Origin: Dehalococcoidia bacterium
GTDB taxonomy: Bacteria > Chloroflexota > Dehalococcoidia > Lucifugimonadales > UBA2985
DNA: 64,000 nucleotides
Assembly (NCBI GenBank): GCA_965218945.1
Contig: OZ244718.1
Location: 3,005,700 to 3,069,699, forward strand
Direction of reading: 5' to 3'
The notes under the pieces are model-generated. The model saw only the letters and a program-made list of their open reading frames with translations. It made no database searches and was not told the origin of the DNA. A program made the translations under genes and the position numbers. How positions within the stretch are numbered: the first letter of the stretch is position 1; every line of letters starts with the position of its first letter. This document shows, piece after piece, positions 4,089 to 12,249 of this stretch.

Positions 4089-5024
4089 CTACCACCAGAT
4101 CCTGTTTTCCACTGTACCCATTAGCTCGTCGAAGTCCTTGGTCCAGAGGGACGTGCTGAGGTATTTCCAGCCGCCATCGGCCAGCAGGCAGACTATGTTC
4201 CCGCTCTCCATACGCTCGGCCAGCCGCATGGCGCAGCACACCACCGAGCCGGAGGATACCCCGGCAAATATCCCCTCCTGCTGCATCAGTTGGCGGGTGG
4301 TGCGAAAGGCGTCCCGGCTTTCGATCATTATCCGGCTGTCCAGCAGCGACAGATCCAGGATGGGCGGGATAAAGCCCTCCTCCAGGCTCCTGAGGCCCTG
4401 GATCACATCGTCCGGGTGAGGGACCACCGCCACAATCTTTATGTTGGAATCGTACTCCTTGAGGCGTCTGCCCACGCCCATCAGCGTGCCTCCGGTGCCC
4501 AGGCCGGCCACGAAAGTATCCACCTCCGGAAGGTCTCGAAGAATCTCCTGGCCCGTGGTTTCGTAGTGGGCCAGGGGGTTGGCCTGGTTGCCGTACTGGT
4601 AGAGCATGTAGTAGTTGGGGTCGTTGGCCGCCATCTCCTGGGCTACCACAATGGAACCGTTGCTTCCCTTGGCGCCATCGCTGTACACGATCTCCGCTCC
4701 GTATGCCTCCAGCAACTGCGTTCGCTCCGGGCCCACGTTCTCCGGCATGACGACCTTCACCCGGTAGCCCTTCCTCTTTGCGACAAAGGCGAGGGCTATG
4801 CCGGTGTTGCCGCTGGTAGGCTCCAGAATGGTCTTGTCGTGGGTCAGCTTGCCCTCGGCCTCGGCCCGCTCAATCATGTACCTGGCGATGCGGTCCTTGA
4901 GACTCCCCGTAGGGTTGGCCCCCTCCAGCTTGGCGAAGATGTGGACGCTCTCCTTGGGACTCATCCTCGTCAACTCCACGAGAGGCGTGTTCCCTATGGT
5001 ATCGAGGATGTCTCTCCCGGTCAT
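4089..5024 (-). CDS. cysteine synthase (PLP-dependent, CysK/CysM family)
   Basis: GNTPLVEL ... KLEGANPTGSLKDRIA (PLP lysine) ... TSGNTGIALA motifs. Track ORF (to 5111) trimmed to MTGRDILD at 5024. Confidence 0.85.
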   Translation of the reverse strand: MTGRDILDTIGNTPLVELTRMSPKESVHIFAKLEGANPTGSLKDRIARYMIERAEAEGKLTHDKTILEPTSGNTGIALAFVAKRKGYRVKVVMPENVGPERTQLLEAYGAEIVYSDGAKGSNGSIVVAQEMAANDPNYYMLYQYGNQANPLAHYETTGQEILRDLPEVDTFVAGLGTGGTLMGVGRRLKEYDSNIKIVAVVPHPDDVIQGLRSLEEGFIPPILDLSLLDSRIMIESRDAFRTTRQLMQQEGIFAGVSSGSVVCCAMRLAERMESGNIVCLLADGGWKYLSTSLWTKDFDELMGTVENRIWW

Positions 5025-5061
5025 GACTGCATGTCCAACACTTCCAGCGAGCGAAAGTGAG

Positions 5062-5895
5062 CTAGCCCTGGATGGCGGTAACGGGCTCCTGCAGGCCGCA
5101 GAAGGCCACATAGTCTATGAGCTCGTGGATGGTTGGATTGTCGCCGCACAGTGGGCACTGGCTGTTGCGCCGCAGCTTCACGGAGCGAAAGTCCATGCTG
5201 AGGGCGTCGATGATGAGCAGGCGACCCGCCAGAGGCTCGCCGGCGCCTATTATCAGCTTGATTGTCTCTACGGCCTGGATGCTGCCCACCATGCCCGGCA
5301 GAGCTCCCAGCACACCGGCCTCGGCGCAGCTGGGCACCGCGCCGGGAGGCGGGGGAGCCGGGAAGAGGCAGCGATAGCACCCCTGCCCGGGCAAGAACAC
5401 GCTGGCCTGGCCGTCGAAGAGAAGGATGCTGCCGTCCACCAGCGGCTTGCCTGACAGGTATGAGGCATCGTTCACCAGGTAGCGGGCGGGGAAGTTGTCC
5501 GCCCCGTTCACTATGATGTCGTACTGGGGGATGATGTCCATCGCGTTCTCCGAGGTGAGCGGCTCCTCGTGGATGACCACGTTCACGTCGGAGTTGTAGT
5601 TGTTAAGGGTCTCCAGGGCCGACTCCACCTTCGGTCTCCCAACGTCGCCCTCCTGGTGAAGGATCTGGCGCTGGAGGTTGCTCAGGTCCACAGTATCGAA
5701 GTCAACGATTCCAAGTGTGCCCACGCCCGCGAGAGTCAGGTACACCGCGACGGGTGAGCCGAGACCGCCTGCGCCAACTATGAGCACCTTGGCGTCGATA
5801 AGACTCCGCTGCCCCTTGCTTCCCACCTGGGGCATTATGATGTGCCGGCTGTATCGCTTGACCTGCTGCGGTGTTAGCGCCTGTGTCTGAGCCAT
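5062..5895 (-). CDS. ThiF/MoeB-family adenylyltransferase (E1-like)
   Basis: RYSRHI, Rossmann VLIVGAGGLGSPVAVYL, DFDTVDLSNLQRQ and two CxxC pairs (CYRC ... CPLC). No rhodanese domain. Confidence 0.8.
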   Translation of the reverse strand: MAQTQALTPQQVKRYSRHIIMPQVGSKGQRSLIDAKVLIVGAGGLGSPVAVYLTLAGVGTLGIVDFDTVDLSNLQRQILHQEGDVGRPKVESALETLNNYNSDVNVVIHEEPLTSENAMDIIPQYDIIVNGADNFPARYLVNDASYLSGKPLVDGSILLFDGQASVFLPGQGCYRCLFPAPPPPGAVPSCAEAGVLGALPGMVGSIQAVETIKLIIGAGEPLAGRLLIIDALSMDFRSVKLRRNSQCPLCGDNPTIHELIDYVAFCGLQEPVTAIQG

Positions 5896-6039
5896 GACTT
5901 GTAATTCCTCCTAAGCTGTCGTGGGCATCCATTATACCCCACGGGCTACCAGTAATATAAAGACCCCGCTCTCCACGCTCGGCCATGGCCGAGGGGTATA
6001 TCCAAACGGGGCCTGCGCCTTTCCGATATTGTGACGGGG

Positions 6040-6477
6040 CTAGATGTGATACATCCCCCGGCTTTGCAGTCTCTCCTGACGACTGGCCAGGTCGGCAATG
6101 GTGGTGGCGTTGAGCACGCCCTGCACCGCGTCCTCCACCGACCGCCAGACCTCCCGCTGAGCGCAGATTTTCGAGAGGTTACACCCATCGGGCTCGTCAA
6201 TGCAGTCCAGCGGGGCTGCCGTGCCTTCGAGACCGGCCATAACCATTCCCAAGCTTATCTCGTGCGGGGCCTTGGCCAGAACGTGGCCCCCCTGAGGCCC
6301 CCTGCGGCTGCGTATAAACCCAAACTTGCCTAGCGTCGCTAGAAGCTGGTCCAGATAGGGCTCGGGAATGCTCTGGCGCTCCGCTATCTCCACCGTCTGA
6401 ACGGACCCACTCCCGTAGCGCTGCGCCAACTCAACCAGCGCACGCACTCCGTAATCTACCTTCATGGGTACCTTCAT
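6040..6477 (-). CDS. Rrf2-family transcriptional regulator
   Basis: Typical Rrf2 N-terminus (KVDYGVRALVELA ... VQTVEIAERQSIPEPYLDQLL..L...G.I.S.RGP.GG). Confidence 0.85.
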   Translation of the reverse strand: MKVPMKVDYGVRALVELAQRYGSGSVQTVEIAERQSIPEPYLDQLLATLGKFGFIRSRRGPQGGHVLAKAPHEISLGMVMAGLEGTAAPLDCIDEPDGCNLSKICAQREVWRSVEDAVQGVLNATTIADLASRQERLQSRGMYHI

Positions 6478-6511
6478 GCCCCTCCTCCTCCTCTAGTCTA
6501 TCCGTCCGACG

Positions 6512-6540
6512 ATTATAGCATGACCCCTGTACAGCTTCAA
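6512..6540 (-). promoter_or_regulatory. sigma70-type promoter for the Rrf2 operon
   Basis: The minus strand reads TTGAAG, a 17-nt spacer, then TATAAT. This is followed by a GAGGAGGAGGAGG RBS and the ATG at 6477. Confidence 0.5.
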
Positions 6541-6590
6541 GCGCAATCTATCTTGGGTAGCGTCTCAGTTTGGGATATCCTATTTTGGTG

Positions 6591-7823
6591 TCAGATTTCA
6601 CGGCCGCCCAGCAATCGCGAAAGTTCTGTCGTAGCCGGATGTCGAGCATATGCCGCGGATGGCATATGCTCGTACTTTTCTAGTAATTCCGACTCGGAGA
6701 AATTCTGCGGCCAGTTGAGGTCGGCAGTGACCCGGCCGCCGCTGATTATGATAGCCGATAGCTCCATCAGCCCAAGTATGTCTCTCAAAAGAGCGCGGTC
6801 AGGGAATTTGAGGTTTCTGTAATACATGCTAACCCGACTCGCCAATTCATTCAGTCTCATGGAGTCGGTGTCCAGTAGTACGCTTATGATCTGTAGCTGA
6901 CGCTCCGCCAATGCTCGGCGGCGTGGACTTCGTAGCCGCCCGAACAGCGATTGGGCGACCTCCCTATAGAGTATCCTCTTGCTGTGAGTAACGATCTCTG
7001 TAGCAAGTGCATCACACCTCTCTGTGACTGCCGGCAAGGCAAATCTCAGGAAAGGCGTGAGATTGTGTCCGTTGCTTCGGGATTCGTACAACGCCGCCAA
7101 GTATTCATCTTGGTGTTCGTAATAGTAGTTGGACAGGCTGACCATGACCATATCATTAACTCCGGCTTGTCTTAACATGAACGCTTCCAGTGCGCGTGCG
7201 CTACGCCCGTTGCCATCACCGAAAGGGTGCATAGCGCCAATATGGTAGTGGGCAGCCATCGCCTGTATGATACGGTCATGCTTTGGAAACTCTCTGGCAA
7301 TGGCTTGCACAAGACCCTCGAATGCCCCGGCTAGTTCAAGCCCTCCTTCCGTGCCTCGACAGCGTGGACGGCCAAAGGTGACGTTCGCTCCGTCGCGACG
7401 AAGCGCGCCAGGCTCGCAGTGATCATCATCACAACCTTTGACGATGCGTTGGTGGATACCAAATGCCAACTCAGCCGTAACTGGCATATCTGTGGGAAGA
7501 GAACGAAGCCAGCGGTAAGTATCTGAGGCTGCTCGCAACTGTCGCTGCGAATGAGTAAGTCCGGCAAGTGCGGGTGTATCAGAGGCGAGAGCTTCTTCCT
7601 GCTCTCGCTGAGTGAACTCAGCGCCTTCAATGCGCGAGGTGCCGAGCGCTTCCAACCTTAGCTGCTCCTCATGGACCTGTTCAATCCATTGCGACAGGTA
7701 AGGGAGACGCTTCAGTACGCCGGCAGCGGTCTTAGCTTCGATTAGCAAACCTGATATGATTGCGCTGTCATAATGTATCCACTGCTGTGGGACGGTGTAA
7801 TGACTGACATAGGTAGATGTCAT
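6591..7823 (-). CDS. Fic/DOC family protein
   Basis: Canonical Fic motif HPFGDGNGRSARA. AT-richer than neighbouring genes. Confidence 0.85.
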   Translation of the reverse strand: MTSTYVSHYTVPQQWIHYDSAIISGLLIEAKTAAGVLKRLPYLSQWIEQVHEEQLRLEALGTSRIEGAEFTQREQEEALASDTPALAGLTHSQRQLRAASDTYRWLRSLPTDMPVTAELAFGIHQRIVKGCDDDHCEPGALRRDGANVTFGRPRCRGTEGGLELAGAFEGLVQAIAREFPKHDRIIQAMAAHYHIGAMHPFGDGNGRSARALEAFMLRQAGVNDMVMVSLSNYYYEHQDEYLAALYESRSNGHNLTPFLRFALPAVTERCDALATEIVTHSKRILYREVAQSLFGRLRSPRRRALAERQLQIISVLLDTDSMRLNELASRVSMYYRNLKFPDRALLRDILGLMELSAIIISGGRVTADLNWPQNFSESELLEKYEHMPSAAYARHPATTELSRLLGGREI

Positions 7824-8011: not shown

Positions 8012-8650
8012 ATGGACGCCATATCACTCGAAGCTACACCCAGGGACGTGCTGGGCAAGAAGGTAAGCAACCTGAGGCGCGCCGGCATGACCCCGATCCA
8101 CCTGTACGGGAAGGGAATAGACTCCAGAGCGCTGCAGGCCGACTCCGTGACCGTCAACAAGGTCGTAAGCCAGGTGGGACAGAACATCCCCCTGCAACTG
8201 AAGGTCAGCGACACCAACGAGCAGGCCCTGGTCTTCGTGCGGGAGGTGCAGCGTCACGCTGTCACCAACCAGATACTTCACATTGACTTCTACCGGGTGG
8301 ATGCCACCGAACGGCTACGGGGAGAGATACCCGTGGTCCTGACTGGGGAGGCCCCCGCTGTGCGAGTGCACAGGGGCATACTGATGCAGACCCTGCACAC
8401 CCTCGCTGTAGAGTGCCTGCCCATGGACACGCCAGAGCGGATTGAGGTGGACATCTCCCTCCTTGAGGCCCTGGACCAGGGCATTCGGGTCTCAGACCTT
8501 GCCACTGACCCGGCCATCACAATCCTGACAGACCCCGAAGAGCTGATAGTCCGGGTAAACGCTCCGCGAGTGGCCGAAGACGGGGCCGCGGGACAGCCCG
8601 GGGATGCTGCGGGCGCGCCTGCCGGGGAGGCGCGGGAGGATTCGGACTGA
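8012..8650 (+). CDS. rplY: 50S ribosomal protein L25 / general stress protein Ctc
   Basis: N-terminal L25 fold signature (R...GKK....RR.G..P...YG) plus the Ctc-type C-terminal domain and an acidic tail. Confidence 0.85.
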   Translation: MDAISLEATPRDVLGKKVSNLRRAGMTPIHLYGKGIDSRALQADSVTVNKVVSQVGQNIPLQLKVSDTNEQALVFVREVQRHAVTNQILHIDFYRVDATERLRGEIPVVLTGEAPAVRVHRGILMQTLHTLAVECLPMDTPERIEVDISLLEALDQGIRVSDLATDPAITILTDPEELIVRVNAPRVAEDGAAGQPGDAAGAPAGEAREDSD

Positions 8651-8746
8651 CTTTCGGCGGGGCCCTCCGGTTAACGCGGTTACGCCGGACAGGATAGAAG
8701 TCGTCCCCTACGACGAGGGGTGGCCCTGTGCCTGACACGGGGGTGA

Positions 8747-9565
8747 GGATTCTGTTGCATTTCGCGGGGTATGCTACTCATGAGTCCGCTACTCCCCCTC
8801 GTCTACTCGTGCATCGCCAGGGTAGACTACCGACCTTTTAGGGTTATCTGGCCGTAACGTCAACAGAGCCTCTGTGGAGTTCATGGCCTTCAAGACAGCT
8901 AACAGTTTTCGTCGTTGAGCTGGCGTACACAATACGAGGTTCTTTATGAGCTCGTCTATTGCTTCATCAGCTTGGCTTTGAGGTTTACTCAATGACTGGA
9001 AATTGACCCCTGCGCCCGGTCCATCTGTTCGCATGTAAAATGGTCTCCACTGTATCTCTTCCGACCTGTAAGAGTGAGATGGGCGCAAGTCGTATATATC
9101 CTGTTCGCTACGAATAGGCACCTGTATGACTTCAATTCCGCCTTCCGTCAAGTGACGGAGCTTGGGTGCTGGCGTAGGATGTGTCACTACAACCTCAATC
9201 ACCCGAATGACCTTCAAGTCCGCGTCCCTCAACGCCAGATCAGGAACGTAGCCCCTAACGGCGTCAAGTCCATCAGGTACCGTAATGTGTTCCACGCCAT
9301 CCAGAACATCGCCCGACAGCGACCCGTCCAGCTGGGGTAGCTGCACTTTCTCATCTTTCTTGCGACGCCCACCCTTAGTCCGATCACCCCTCTCTTCGCG
9401 CCCATCGTTTCGCGTCTTCAACATATCCCATATCACGCCCACGGCGTACTCGTGGAGTAAACTTACTCGATGCTCTTCGGTGCCGACATTTTTGTTCCAG
9501 TCCATATCGCTACCACCTTTCTTTTGATACGTTTCCCCTAACTACCCCGCGAATGCAACAGAACC
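8747..9565. mobile_element. 819-bp IS-like element: 23-25 nt terminal inverted repeats, 7-bp flanking direct repeat, one ORF
   Basis: Left end GGATTCTGTTGCATTTCGCGGGGTA (8747-8771). Right end TACCCCGCGAATGCAACAGAACC (9543-9565), its reverse complement apart from two 1-nt indels. GGGGTGA lies immediately outside both ends (8740-8746 and 9566-9572). Confidence 0.55.
8789..9505 (-). CDS. hypothetical protein carried by the TIR-bounded element (possible PD-(D/E)xK-like nuclease)
   Basis: 238-aa ORF that fills the element. YVPDLAL ... VIEVVVTH resembles nuclease-fold motifs, but the family is not recognised. Contains a Lys/Arg-rich insert. Confidence 0.45.
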   Translation of the reverse strand: MDWNKNVGTEEHRVSLLHEYAVGVIWDMLKTRNDGREERGDRTKGGRRKKDEKVQLPQLDGSLSGDVLDGVEHITVPDGLDAVRGYVPDLALRDADLKVIRVIEVVVTHPTPAPKLRHLTEGGIEVIQVPIRSEQDIYDLRPSHSYRSEEIQWRPFYMRTDGPGAGVNFQSLSKPQSQADEAIDELIKNLVLCTPAQRRKLLAVLKAMNSTEALLTLRPDNPKRSVVYPGDARVDEGE

Positions 9566-9621
9566 GGGGTGAGCGGAATCTCGAAGGCTCCCATTTAAGG
9601 CGACGCGTAAACCCCGGCAGC

Positions 9622-10563
9622 CTATGAGGGCAGCGTAGACCCCAGGAAGCCCTCGTGGCCCTTCAGGAAGTCGGCAGCGTCAACCGCTCGACGCCCCTCC
9701 AACTGGACGCGCTTGAGGCCCAGGACGCCTTCCCCCGCAGCCACTCCCACCGGCGCCAGGCCGTCTTTCTCCAGTAGCAGCGCCTTCCCCGGGGCGCCAA
9801 CGCCGGTACCGGGCAGCGGCACAGCCTCCAGCACCTTCAGCAGCCTGCCCTCCCAGCGTGTGTATGAGCCGGGCCAGGGGTGGTAAGCCCGCACCTGCCG
9901 CCATATGCTCTCCGCCGGCAGCGCCCATCGGATTTCGCCGTCCTCCTTGGTCAGCCTGGGGGCGTATGTGGCCCGGGCTTCCTCCTGGGGCTGGGAGACC
10001 ATATCGCCCTGCAGGAAGCGGGGTAGACTGTCGACCAGCAGCTTCGCTCCCCTGCGAAAGAGCCTGTCCGTGAGAGTCTCCGTTGTGTCCTCCGGGAGGA
10101 TTGGCTCCTCTTCCTGAGCGATTACCGGCCCGGAGTCCATCCCCTCGTCCAGCAGCATGATGCTCACCCCGGCCGTCTCGTCTCCCTCCAGGATGGTGAA
10201 CGCCACCGGCGACGGCCCGCGATGTCTCGGAAGAAGCGACGGGTGGACGTTCACGCATCCTCCCGGAGACATCCCGATCACCTCCGGCGGAAGGATCCTG
10301 CCGTAGGCGGCTATGGCTATCAGGTCCGGGGCCAGAGCGGCCAGTTGGCTGTGGGCGTCAGGGTTTCTCAGAGAGGTGGGCTGGAGCACATTCAGGCCGC
10401 GCTCAATGGCAAAGGTCTTCACCGGCGAGGCCTCCATGCTCCTGCCTCTCCCTGCGGGTCTGTCGGGCTGTGTGTAGACGCCGACCAGGTCATATCCGCT
10501 CGCAAGAAGCTCCTCCAGCGGAGGGATTGCAAAGGCAGGAGTTCCCATATAAACCACTCTCAT
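9622..10563 (-). CDS. fmt: methionyl-tRNA formyltransferase
   Basis: MRVVYMGTPAFAIPPLEEL ... VYTQPDRPAGRG ... NVHPSLLPRHRG. Track ORF (410 aa) trimmed to the conserved start at 10563. Confidence 0.9.
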   Translation of the reverse strand: MRVVYMGTPAFAIPPLEELLASGYDLVGVYTQPDRPAGRGRSMEASPVKTFAIERGLNVLQPTSLRNPDAHSQLAALAPDLIAIAAYGRILPPEVIGMSPGGCVNVHPSLLPRHRGPSPVAFTILEGDETAGVSIMLLDEGMDSGPVIAQEEEPILPEDTTETLTDRLFRRGAKLLVDSLPRFLQGDMVSQPQEEARATYAPRLTKEDGEIRWALPAESIWRQVRAYHPWPGSYTRWEGRLLKVLEAVPLPGTGVGAPGKALLLEKDGLAPVGVAAGEGVLGLKRVQLEGRRAVDAADFLKGHEGFLGSTLPS

Positions 10564-10872: not shown

Positions 10873-12249
10873 ATGAAATTTCAGACCTCTGCGCAGGCAT
10901 GGGAAGCGGTGCTATCCAGCCTGGAACTACAGGTTAGCCGGCCCATCTTCAGGACGTGGTTGAAGGACACAGTCGGTTTGTCTCTGGAGGACAACCGGAT
11001 AGTCGTCGGGACGCCGTCCGCGTTTGTGGCGGAATGGCTTGAGAAACGTATGTCTTCCCTCATTGAGAGCGCGTTGTCCCAGGTCATGGGCCAGCGGACG
11101 GAGGCGCGCTTTCAGATTCTGACCGAGCAGCCACCGCCGGCACACGCCAGGCCGGTCTCCGCGCACAGCCCGGCGCCCAGCGCGCCGCCTGCTAACGACC
11201 GGCCTCTAGGCAGCGCCAACGGACGACCCAGGCTCAACCAGAAGTACACCCTCAGCTCCTTTGTGGTGGGGGCCTCCAACCAGTTGGCCTACGCCGCTGC
11301 GCTGGCCGTCTCCTCTCGACCGGGGGAAGCGTATAACCCACTCTTCCTCTATGCCGGAGTCGGCCTTGGCAAGACGCACCTTCTCCAGGCGATCGGCCAT
11401 GCCTATGCCACCAAGGGCATGAGCTACCTGTACGTCAGCTCCGAACAGTTCACCAATGACTTCGTCACTTCGATTCAAGCCAAACGTACACGGGAGTTTC
11501 GCGAGAAGTACCACAGCGCCGATGTACTCCTGGTGGATGACATCCAGTTCCTGCGCGGCAGGGAGGCCACCCAGGAGGGGTTTTTCCACACTTTCAACGA
11601 TCTCCACAACACAAACCGCCAGATTGTCATCGCCAGCGACAGACCGTCGTCGGCGCTCCTGCCCCTGGAGGACCGCCTCAGGTCCAGGTTCGAGTGGGGT
11701 CTCAGCGCAGACATCCAGACCCCTGACCAGGAGACGCGCATCGCCATTCTGCAGGCCAAAGCGGGAAGCCAAGGCGCAAATATCCCCCAAGAGGTACATG
11801 AGCTAATCGCTGAGAGCTTCCCCGCCAACATCAGGGAGCTGGAGGGCGCTCTCAACAGGGTCTGTGCCTACGCCGACTTCACAGGAAGAGCGCCCGATCT
11901 CGACCTAGCATATGAGGCTCTAGAGAGTCTCCTACCGCAAAGCACTTCCTCCATCCCCACGCCGGATATGGTTCTGGCAAGCGTCTGCGCCTTCTACAGC
12001 GTCACTAACGACGCTCTGTGCAGCAGACGCCGCGACAAAGCCGTCAGCCAGGCCAGACAGGTAGCAGTCTACCTCCTCAGAGAAGTCGCCTTGAAGAACC
12101 TCCGCGAGATAGGAAGCCTTCTGGGTCACCGGGATCACGCTACCATCCGGTACGCATGGATGAGGATATGCGAGGCTAGAGAGACGGATGCGGTCTTGAA
12201 AGCAGACATATCAGCCATCCTGGACAGTATCACCGCTTCAAGCAGCTAA
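10873..12249 (+). CDS. dnaA: chromosomal replication initiator protein DnaA
   Basis: Domain I (W..vl..l), AAA+ Walker A GVGLGKTHLLQAIG, Walker B LLVDDIQFL and a domain IV DNA-binding C-terminus. Confidence 0.95.
   Translation: MKFQTSAQAWEAVLSSLELQVSRPIFRTWLKDTVGLSLEDNRIVVGTPSAFVAEWLEKRMSSLIESALSQVMGQRTEARFQILTEQPPPAHARPVSAHSPAPSAPPANDRPLGSANGRPRLNQKYTLSSFVVGASNQLAYAAALAVSSRPGEAYNPLFLYAGVGLGKTHLLQAIGHAYATKGMSYLYVSSEQFTNDFVTSIQAKRTREFREKYHSADVLLVDDIQFLRGREATQEGFFHTFNDLHNTNRQIVIASDRPSSALLPLEDRLRSRFEWGLSADIQTPDQETRIAILQAKAGSQGANIPQEVHELIAESFPANIRELEGALNRVCAYADFTGRAPDLDLAYEALESLLPQSTSSIPTPDMVLASVCAFYSVTNDALCSRRRDKAVSQARQVAVYLLREVALKNLREIGSLLGHRDHATIRYAWMRICEARETDAVLKADISAILDSITASSS

Follow-up and report, generated by a model that had tools for sequence, protein, structure and literature searches.

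We analysed a 64,000-nt stretch of contig OZ244718.1 from a Dehalococcoidia bacterium (assembly GCA_965218945.1, positions 3,005,700 to 3,069,699; hereafter the window) and describe an 819-bp, AT-richer insert in the rplY–fmt interval (8747–9565), whose ends belong, by their sequence, to the type found in the insertion sequence (IS) family IS6/IS26. The insert is a real small mobile element, probably moved by something other than its own gene. With confidence only slightly above even, we favour the explanation that it is a transposase-less IS6/IS26-type mobile insertion cassette (MIC), moved in trans by an IS6/IS26-type DDE transposase. Its single open reading frame (ORF) codes for a 238-aa protein, in whose N-terminal half we recognize, from profile comparison and a structural model, an atypical PD-(D/E)XK nuclease of CoiA-like type.

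The boundaries of the element read GGGGTGA, GGATTCTGTTGCATTTCGCGGGGTA (8747–8771) ... TACCCCGCGAATGCAACAGAACC (9543–9565), GGGGTGA, and a repeat search resolves the arms, of 25 and 23 nt, into perfect inverted blocks of 12 and 11 nt separated by an indel. The GC fraction is 0.52 within the element versus 0.64–0.70 in the flanks. An initial annotation of the DNA had described these boundaries, the inverted ends, the AT-richer interior and the single interior ORF, all of which we confirm in the sequence, and its proposal of an insertion with inverted ends and a target duplication is supported as one of transposon type. It had read the direct repeat as 7 bp and the arms as differing by two indels. 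The repeat itself stands; its length is better read as 8 bp (GGGGTGAG, 8740–8747 and 9566–9573), because the sister elements L007 and L009 (loci fetched for comparison are denoted by L and a number) carry perfect 8-bp duplications and two others match at seven of eight positions. Under this reading the left arm begins GaTTCTG, which corresponds to one mismatch plus one indel rather than two indels. The features of the element are as follows.

8740–8747, no strand: left copy of the target-site duplication, GGGGTGAG; on a 7-bp reading its last base would also open the left end.
8747–8771, plus strand: left terminal inverted repeat, GGATTCTGTTGCATTTCGCGGGGTA, downstream of the ORF; imperfect (an extra A, or G>A plus an extra T); matches the 24-nt consensus of 19 arms.
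8789–9505, minus strand: 238-aa ORF, starting 37 nt inside the right end and stopping 17 nt before the left end.
9543–9565, minus strand: right terminal inverted repeat, read inward as GGTTCTGTTGCATTCGCGGGGTA, upstream of the ORF; exact match to the consensus.
9566–9573, no strand: right copy of the target-site duplication, GGGGTGAG, as read from the sequence.

A scan for promoter and terminator consensus sequences across the element yielded none. The view that the inverted repeat arose by chance about an ordinary resident gene, without any mobility, can for practical purposes be set aside. Its one point of support is that the element is single-copy in the 64-kb window, where the 22-nt arm has no further copy at ≤3 mismatches and the 11-nt arm core is found only at the two arms. 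The search with the 22-nt arm gave 0 hits in 100 shuffles, the same pairs of 24-nt ends with duplications occur in other genomes, and the element is absent from the closest relative, so that this explanation is refuted.

We searched 185,579 species, each represented by a single genome, with the end pattern TTCTGTTGCATT, 0–1 nt, CGCGGGGTA. The scan returned eight stretches, all in Dehalococcoidia metagenome-assembled genomes and five of them in one complete 2.79-Mb chromosome. Under approximate matching all but one of the eight are inverted arm pairs, and a further pair was obtained from the locus of a homolog of the window ORF (L016). Besides the window element, eight elements of 437–1079 bp in other Dehalococcoidia genomes are therefore bounded by the same ends.

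L005: 515 bp, without ORF.
L006, 7001–7751: 751 bp, with a 222-aa ORF that exceeds the Pfam thresholds for HNH and Endonuclease_7 (recombination endonuclease VII), a second, unrelated nuclease in the transposase slot.
L007, 6596–7273: 678 bp, with a 98-aa ORF and a 64-aa zinc-ribbon ORF.
L008, 1353–2431: 1079 bp, with a 260-aa ORF showing weak leucine-rich-repeat matches and a 61-aa zinc-ribbon ORF.
L009: 768 bp, with a 213-aa homolog of the window ORF.
L011: 437 bp, without ORF.
L012: 746 bp, with a 222-aa homolog of the window ORF.
L016 to L018: 841 bp, with a 248-aa homolog of the window ORF.

Perfect 8-bp duplications flank L007 (GAGGTAAC) and L009 (CACATTAG), and those of L008 and L012 agree at seven of eight positions. 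In an all-against-all blastn comparison the elements have only their ends of ~24–28 nt in common, with the exception of L007 and L008, which also share subterminal modules (95 nt at the 5′ and 190 nt at the 3′ side) around different middle cargo; this arrangement suggests cassette-like swapping. The 190-nt module includes the 61–64-aa zinc-ribbon ORF (CxxC...CxxC), which abuts one end. The ORF-less elements L005 and L011 contain no remnants of the window ORF. Outside this set, a metagenome scan for the end gave one chance match without partner arm, inside a Bacteroidota SusD-like gene (L013, 5021–5046), and two viral scans, a phage protein search and a plasmid search with the end sequence returned nothing. 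A solo 24-nt end lies at 4644–4667 of L010 (minus strand), within a frameshifted TnpB-like region and ~1.7 kb from a serine-recombinase-like ORF (6398–6988; both assigned by eye), with no partner arm within the 8-kb locus. In L016 the left end has a 7–8-nt insertion near its tip and no target duplication is visible; there (4366–6864), as in L017 and L018, transposase genes with an rve domain (IS3/IS481-like) stand on either side of the end-bearing homolog.

The consensus of the 19 arms, GGTTCTGTTGCATT(T)CGCGGGGTAG, agrees with 12 of the 14 positions of the IS6/IS26 consensus GGTTCTGTTGCAAA, including G1, G2, G7 and G10 (PMC6807381), and the ends of IS257 and IS1216 start GGTTCTGTTGCAAAGTT (PMC4856351, PMC2920175). 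Members of the IS6 family generate 8-bp duplications, measure 700–890 bp and encode one transposase of 213–254 aa that spans the element (PMC7986276). The window element, at 819 bp, with one 238-aa ORF across its length, IS6-type ends and an 8-bp duplication, has the same outward form. This IS6/IS26 nature of the ends, visible in the 12 of 14 consensus positions and the 8-bp duplication, had been missed in the initial annotation. The element departs from the family in three respects: its ORF is not a DDE transposase and has no match to PF13610 or rve; the conserved end is longer (24 nt) and finishes in CGCGGGGTAG instead of an AAA-rich stretch; and no two identical copies of these elements were seen in one genome. 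ISDsp3 from Dehalococcoides sp. BAV1, which measures 1456 bp and has a 319-aa transposase, ends of 28/36 nt and an 8-bp duplication, is the one IS with a passenger gene that ISfinder lists for the family, alongside only two MITEs (short for miniature inverted-repeat transposable elements) (PMC7986276, PMC6807381); its occurrence in Dehalococcoides means that an IS6-related transposase exists in this bacterial class.

To characterize the protein, we compared the 238-aa sequence with Pfam, NCBIfam, PHROGs and PADLOC, and obtained no match at E values up to 10. An exhaustive representative search returned 100 relatives at E ≤1e-3, of which 70 at ≤1e-10, with full-length members of ~200–250 aa; a word-indexed database gave only 4 and then 17 relatives, none named or carrying a Pfam domain. 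The alignment of the family has near-invariant residues L17, H18, G85, P88, D89, R101, E104, P195, R198, N221 and P222, and D89 and E104 are conserved in ≥90% of members. An AlphaFold2 model of the window protein has a mean predicted local distance difference test score (pLDDT) of 85, exceeding 90 over the core, and a predicted template modelling score (pTM) of 0.79. Its elements follow the order helix 16–41, strand 73–75, strand 90–93, strand 99–106, helix 113–121 and strand 125–130, followed by a separate helical domain at 169–234. D89 opens strand 2 and E104 lies on strand 3, as in a PD-(D/E)XK core, and the model contains the four strands between two helices of this fold. We therefore divide the ORF into two parts.

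9080–9484, minus strand: predicted nuclease core, residues 8–142, delimited by the AlphaFold2 model, hhalign and the conserved D89 and E104.
8804–9001, minus strand: C-terminal helical domain, residues 169–234, with conserved P195, R198, N221 and P222; a HEAT-repeat-like helical hairpin.

Fold and profile searches point in the same direction. Foldseek with the model gave nothing significant; its weak neighbours include FAN1 (VRR-NUC), DrdV, Bax1 and YaeQ in the PDB, and endonuclease I, VRR-NUC proteins, restriction enzymes, a "competence protein" and a Holliday-junction resolvase in BFVD. Sub-threshold Pfam matches occur in 11 of the 53 members in the family profile, with BsuBI_PstI_RE in seven and VRR_NUC in four (best E 7e-4). 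A tblastn search against plasmids led to the Nostoc protein WP_237997488, which bears the NCBI name "competence protein CoiA family protein" and has a Pfam CoiA_N domain, and hhalign aligned it to family positions 8–142 with 97.6% probability (E 3.8e-12); neither this protein nor the ORF family matches Pfam PF06054. CoiA, a competence protein of Bacillota, has been described as an atypical PD-(D/E)XK enzyme that has its D on strand 2 and its E on strand 3, acting as a structure-specific endonuclease and D-loop resolvase (bioRxiv 10.1101/2024.02.06.579203). The N-terminal half of the window protein shares this core, with the same placement of D and E and without the canonical lysine, and is on these grounds a CoiA-like nuclease of predicted activity. 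By analogy with CoiA it would probably cut branched DNA. It differs from CoiA in having its own C-terminal domain and in lacking the N-terminal CoiA_N zinc finger, for which the window protein gives no Pfam hit and the Nostoc alignment begins at the first core helix; its gene, moreover, lies on a mobile element in Dehalococcoidia and not in a competence regulon. The initial impression of a PD-(D/E)xK pattern is thus borne out by the conserved residues, the model and the profile match to the CoiA family.

Among ten distinct family loci for which DNA is available, four have both ends at fixed positions and six have no detectable end. At the four end-bearing loci the upstream end closes 26–64 nt before the ATG and the downstream end opens 2–17 nt after the stop codon. 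The end-less members are interleaved in the family tree (L019 is 64% identical to the end-bearing L016), and alignment scores for remnant ends at the end-less homologs were no better than those of shuffles. The sites of these homologs vary but lie between housekeeping genes (dcd/inositol phosphatase and hemL/sodA among them), and genes of toxin-antitoxin or GmrSD type are often close by. GmrSD_N-domain genes lie 2–3.5 kb from end-less homologs in two unrelated contexts (L001, 9545–10750; L015, 1548–2606), that of L001 beside a HEPN RiboL-PSP gene, which hints at variable, defence-like neighbourhoods for free copies of the family. In L019 and L020 the end-less homolog is surrounded by a perfect 13-nt inverted repeat, TTATAGGGTATGG (4977–4989 and 5738–5750), which is unrelated to the IS6-type ends; the 3′ untranslated stretch CCCTATAAGCAAACG of these two loci is also present in the end-bearing L016, and a highly variable segment begins 27 nt past the stop codon.

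We searched for the transposase that could act on these ends, using as query an IS26 transposase sequence (Tnp26) validated by a 2.4e-48 hit to Pfam DDE_Tnp_IS240. A tblastn search gave no match across the window and the 27 fetched loci, a total of 311 kb, and none of the nine elements encodes a DDE transposase. A divergent IS6 transposase was considered for the window ORF and rejected, given that there is no DDE-family hit, that hhalign assigns 0.5% to Tnp26 versus the 53-member ORF profile and that the fold is not RNase H-like; the same hhalign value bears out the initial impression that the protein does not look like a DDE transposase.

Ends of IS6/IS26 type, together with a duplication of 8 bp, point to a DDE transposase acting in trans. 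An enzyme of this family encoded elsewhere, in a resident IS or in a vector since lost, would bind the ends and join them to a target whose strands are cut 8 bp apart. The GGGGTGAG duplication would arise in this way between rplY and fmt, at the 3′ end of a grpB gene that was truncated already or subsequently. The passenger would be the CoiA-like endonuclease, with D89 and E104 as predicted catalytic residues and its own C-terminal helical domain. If the element is such a cassette, we lean moderately towards the nuclease being a selfish or host-useful passenger; that it instead aids the element, for instance through the processing of strand-transfer or cointegrate intermediates of IS6 type, is then a substantial but lesser possibility. 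The initial annotation had offered two alternatives, a very small IS with a nuclease-fold transposase and a MITE-like shuttle with a cargo gene. The latter fits best, since the same ends bound unrelated cargo or none. The two outcomes that the annotation had named as contrary to its proposal, a single copy everywhere and a match of the protein to a housekeeping family, were not observed.

Several observations weigh against a cassette moved in trans. (i) A cognate transposase was found neither in the window nor in the 27 loci nor among the end-scan hits, and the exact-end scan of the 185,579 species returned transposase-less elements only, five of them in one complete chromosome. (ii) No genome showed the same element twice, and a recent burst is therefore not indicated. 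(iii) Positions 13–14 of the end are TT versus AA in the IS6 consensus. (iv) The ORF fills the window element as an IS6 transposase would, which is unusual for a casual passenger. (v) The four end-bearing family members fall in four deep clades with 26–40% pairwise identity, while their ends are nearly identical throughout, again unusual for a casual passenger. (vi) IS6-family transposases are reported to give cointegrates, not simple insertions, and host recombination resolves them (PMC7986276); because of this, a clean single copy flanked by a duplication needs a resolution step.

The CoiA-like nuclease might, as a less probable alternative that we nevertheless take seriously, be part of the transposition machinery of a distinct IS6-ended lineage, either as the transposase itself or as a TnsA-like or resolvase-like partner that turns cointegrates into simple insertions. 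A role in the machinery would explain why two unrelated nucleases of structure-specific type (CoiA-like and HNH/Endonuclease VII-like) occupy the transposase slot across deep divergence. In its autonomous form, which we regard as doubtful, the 238-aa nuclease-fold protein would be the transposase of a new IS type with IS6-like ends, and elements with other cargo or none would be non-autonomous derivatives. Such a transposase would have no precedent. The layout of one ORF filling the element, 26–64 nt from one end and 2–17 nt from the other, is indeed IS-like, the ends accompany the family over its entire tree, and searches of the window and the 27 loci gave no transposase; of the five elements in the complete chromosome, one (L009) bears a family member, and no DDE partner was detected. 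Yet a DDE family has exactly such ends and such an 8-bp duplication, and the use of both by an unrelated enzyme would be a remarkable coincidence. No genome was seen to contain a second copy of a family-bearing element, many members of the family have no ends, and no PD-(D/E)XK protein is known to perform strand transfer alone.

In a second form, unlikely in our estimation, the nuclease would be a helper: a DDE transposase would act in trans, and the nuclease would cut the non-transferred strands, or a branched strand-transfer or cointegrate intermediate, to give simple insertions. The deep and repeated linkage of family and ends in four clades with identical geometry is consistent with this role, as are the unrelated HNH/Endonuclease_7 nuclease in the same frame in L006, the structure-specific, D-loop-resolving activity of CoiA, the weak fold and profile neighbours among VRR-NUC proteins, T7 endonuclease I-like proteins and Holliday-junction resolvases, and the dependence of IS6-family elements on host recombination for cointegrate resolution. 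However, the nuclease-free elements L005, L007, L008 and L011 also show target duplications, six of the ten family loci have no ends, and the window ORF gives no Pfam match to TnsA. A functional parallel would be TnsA, the PD-(D/E)XK subunit of the heteromeric Tn7 transposase. In both proteins a nuclease domain of restriction-enzyme fold precedes a C-terminal domain, and TnsA too is carried by a transposon whose DDE chemistry alone would give replicative products. The window ORF, in contrast, has no sequence or Pfam match to TnsA and its element has no second gene, hence no TnsB-like partner; the resemblance is only a speculation about function.

We determined the history of the insertion site by comparison with relatives. 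Three of them, L022, L023 and L024 (Fmt 96%, 83% and 80% identical), have an intact grpB of 182–207 aa between rplY and fmt. In L022, the closest, the DNA is 97% identical up to 8729 and 95% identical from 9628, with 574 bp of grpB and spacer in place of 898 bp in the window.

8604–8735, plus strand: truncated grpB, 43 codons and then a stop, overlapping the rplY 3′ end; the window lineage has lost ~490 bp.
8730–9627, no strand: block without counterpart in L022, comprising the element with 10 nt and 54 nt of flank.

The initial annotation had proposed to look for an empty rplY–fmt site in relatives. The element is absent from L022, but a clean empty site was not obtained, as grpB there stands opposite the insert plus 64 nt of unrelated flank; the reconstructed insert-free site reads …GCCTGACACGGGGTGAGCGGAATC…. 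The grpB deletion junction lies 10 nt from the target duplication, and on inspection the 10 nt between them loosely resemble the grpB stop region, which is why we place the insertion, probably, at the 3′ end of grpB. An IS-mediated adjacent deletion of grpB was rejected, with the duplication intact and 10 nt away from the deletion junction.

Two further assemblies, L026 and L027, share the element with the window, and its site, duplication, imperfect left end and deletion junction are identical there. They differ from it at 3 positions in the 834 nt of element and duplication, whereas the flanks differ by ~6% overall and 4–12% locally, and differences return at background density 13–25 nt outside the insert. 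The insert is about tenfold less diverged than its flanks and absent from the closest relative; it is therefore young relative to the divergence of the strains, polymorphic and horizontally spread. A comparable pattern is present at the end-less homolog between hemL and sodA in L002 and L003 (5931–6661), with 6 differences in 639 nt, all synonymous, and flanks diverged by 8–15%. Both the L026/L027 and the L002/L003 loci were chosen via identical proteins, a sampling bias that does not explain the scarcity of synonymous differences. In L003 a 14–15-nt tandem duplication of TGCGGGGTAGG lies at the upstream boundary, a motif that resembles the inner part of the element end.

These divergence patterns raise the possibility, improbable in our view, of a homing-type selfish nuclease gene that spreads at a fixed site by nuclease breaks and repair, with the IS6-type ends as a secondary vehicle of some copies. 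PD-(D/E)XK and HNH are known homing-endonuclease folds. The occupation of the same site in strains ~6% diverged, with only 0.4% divergence in the insert and a return to background within 13–25 nt, would be expected from homing, as would the same pattern at the end-less L002/L003 homolog and the position of family members between housekeeping genes at differing sites in different genomes. On the other hand, the element-bearing haplotypes all have one grpB deletion junction, so that one origin and subsequent spread by ordinary homologous recombination in the flanks would account for the pattern just as well and suffice for it, although a homing-like or an end-targeted replacement may also have produced it. 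The compared loci were, moreover, picked for encoding identical proteins, CoiA-type enzymes are structure-specific and not site-specific, and target duplications are not a product of homing.

The preferred reading, a cassette moved in trans, has precedent. MICs mobilized in trans are an established class with IS-type inverted repeats, a target duplication and no transposase gene (PMC3913671). The window element resembles MICs (MIC231 of Bacillus cereus; the qnrD mic) as well as the IS6-family MITEs MITEBth2 and MITEHarch3 in these three properties, and like MICs it carries a passenger ORF and belongs to a family that is held together by its ends and not by its contents. It differs in that the cognate IS was not found for the elements described here, and in that one passenger family is met repeatedly across deep divergence, a feature not reported for MICs.

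The immediate neighbours of the element are rplY (8012–8650) and fmt (from 9622, minus strand), confirmed by Pfam marks on the syntenic genes of relatives. A 410-aa ORF (6591–7823, minus strand) has syntenic counterparts with a Fic domain (PF02661) and adjoins rplY in all relatives examined. The dnaA gene (10873–12249, plus strand) lies 1.3 kb from the element, and the insertion thus adjoins the presumed replication-origin region. No Rfam family reached threshold anywhere in the 64-kb window.

None of the components is new by itself: transposon ends with target duplications, MICs, MITEs of the IS6 family and PD-(D/E)XK nucleases have been described before. New are (i) a family of cargo-bearing, transposase-less IS6-type elements in Dehalococcoidia, (ii) the assignment, from sequence profiles and the model, of an unannotated protein family to putative CoiA-like nucleases and (iii) the recurrent placement of these nucleases in the transposase slot of IS6-ended elements. 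The reviews of the IS6 family cited here list, beyond the two MITEs and the one passenger-gene IS, no cargo-carrying transposase-less element of IS6 type (PMC7986276, PMC6807381).

Few insertion sequences are as consequential as the IS6/IS26 elements, for which cointegrate formation is held to be the sole route of movement. The IS6-ended, nuclease-carrying elements of uncultured Dehalococcoidia extend the known forms and the host range of this family, and they provide a first genomic context for an uncharacterized protein family of ~100 clusters at 50% identity. If it is true that the nuclease aids mobility, it would represent a structure-specific nuclease that converts copy-in transposition to simple insertion outside Tn7, an idea that can be tested.

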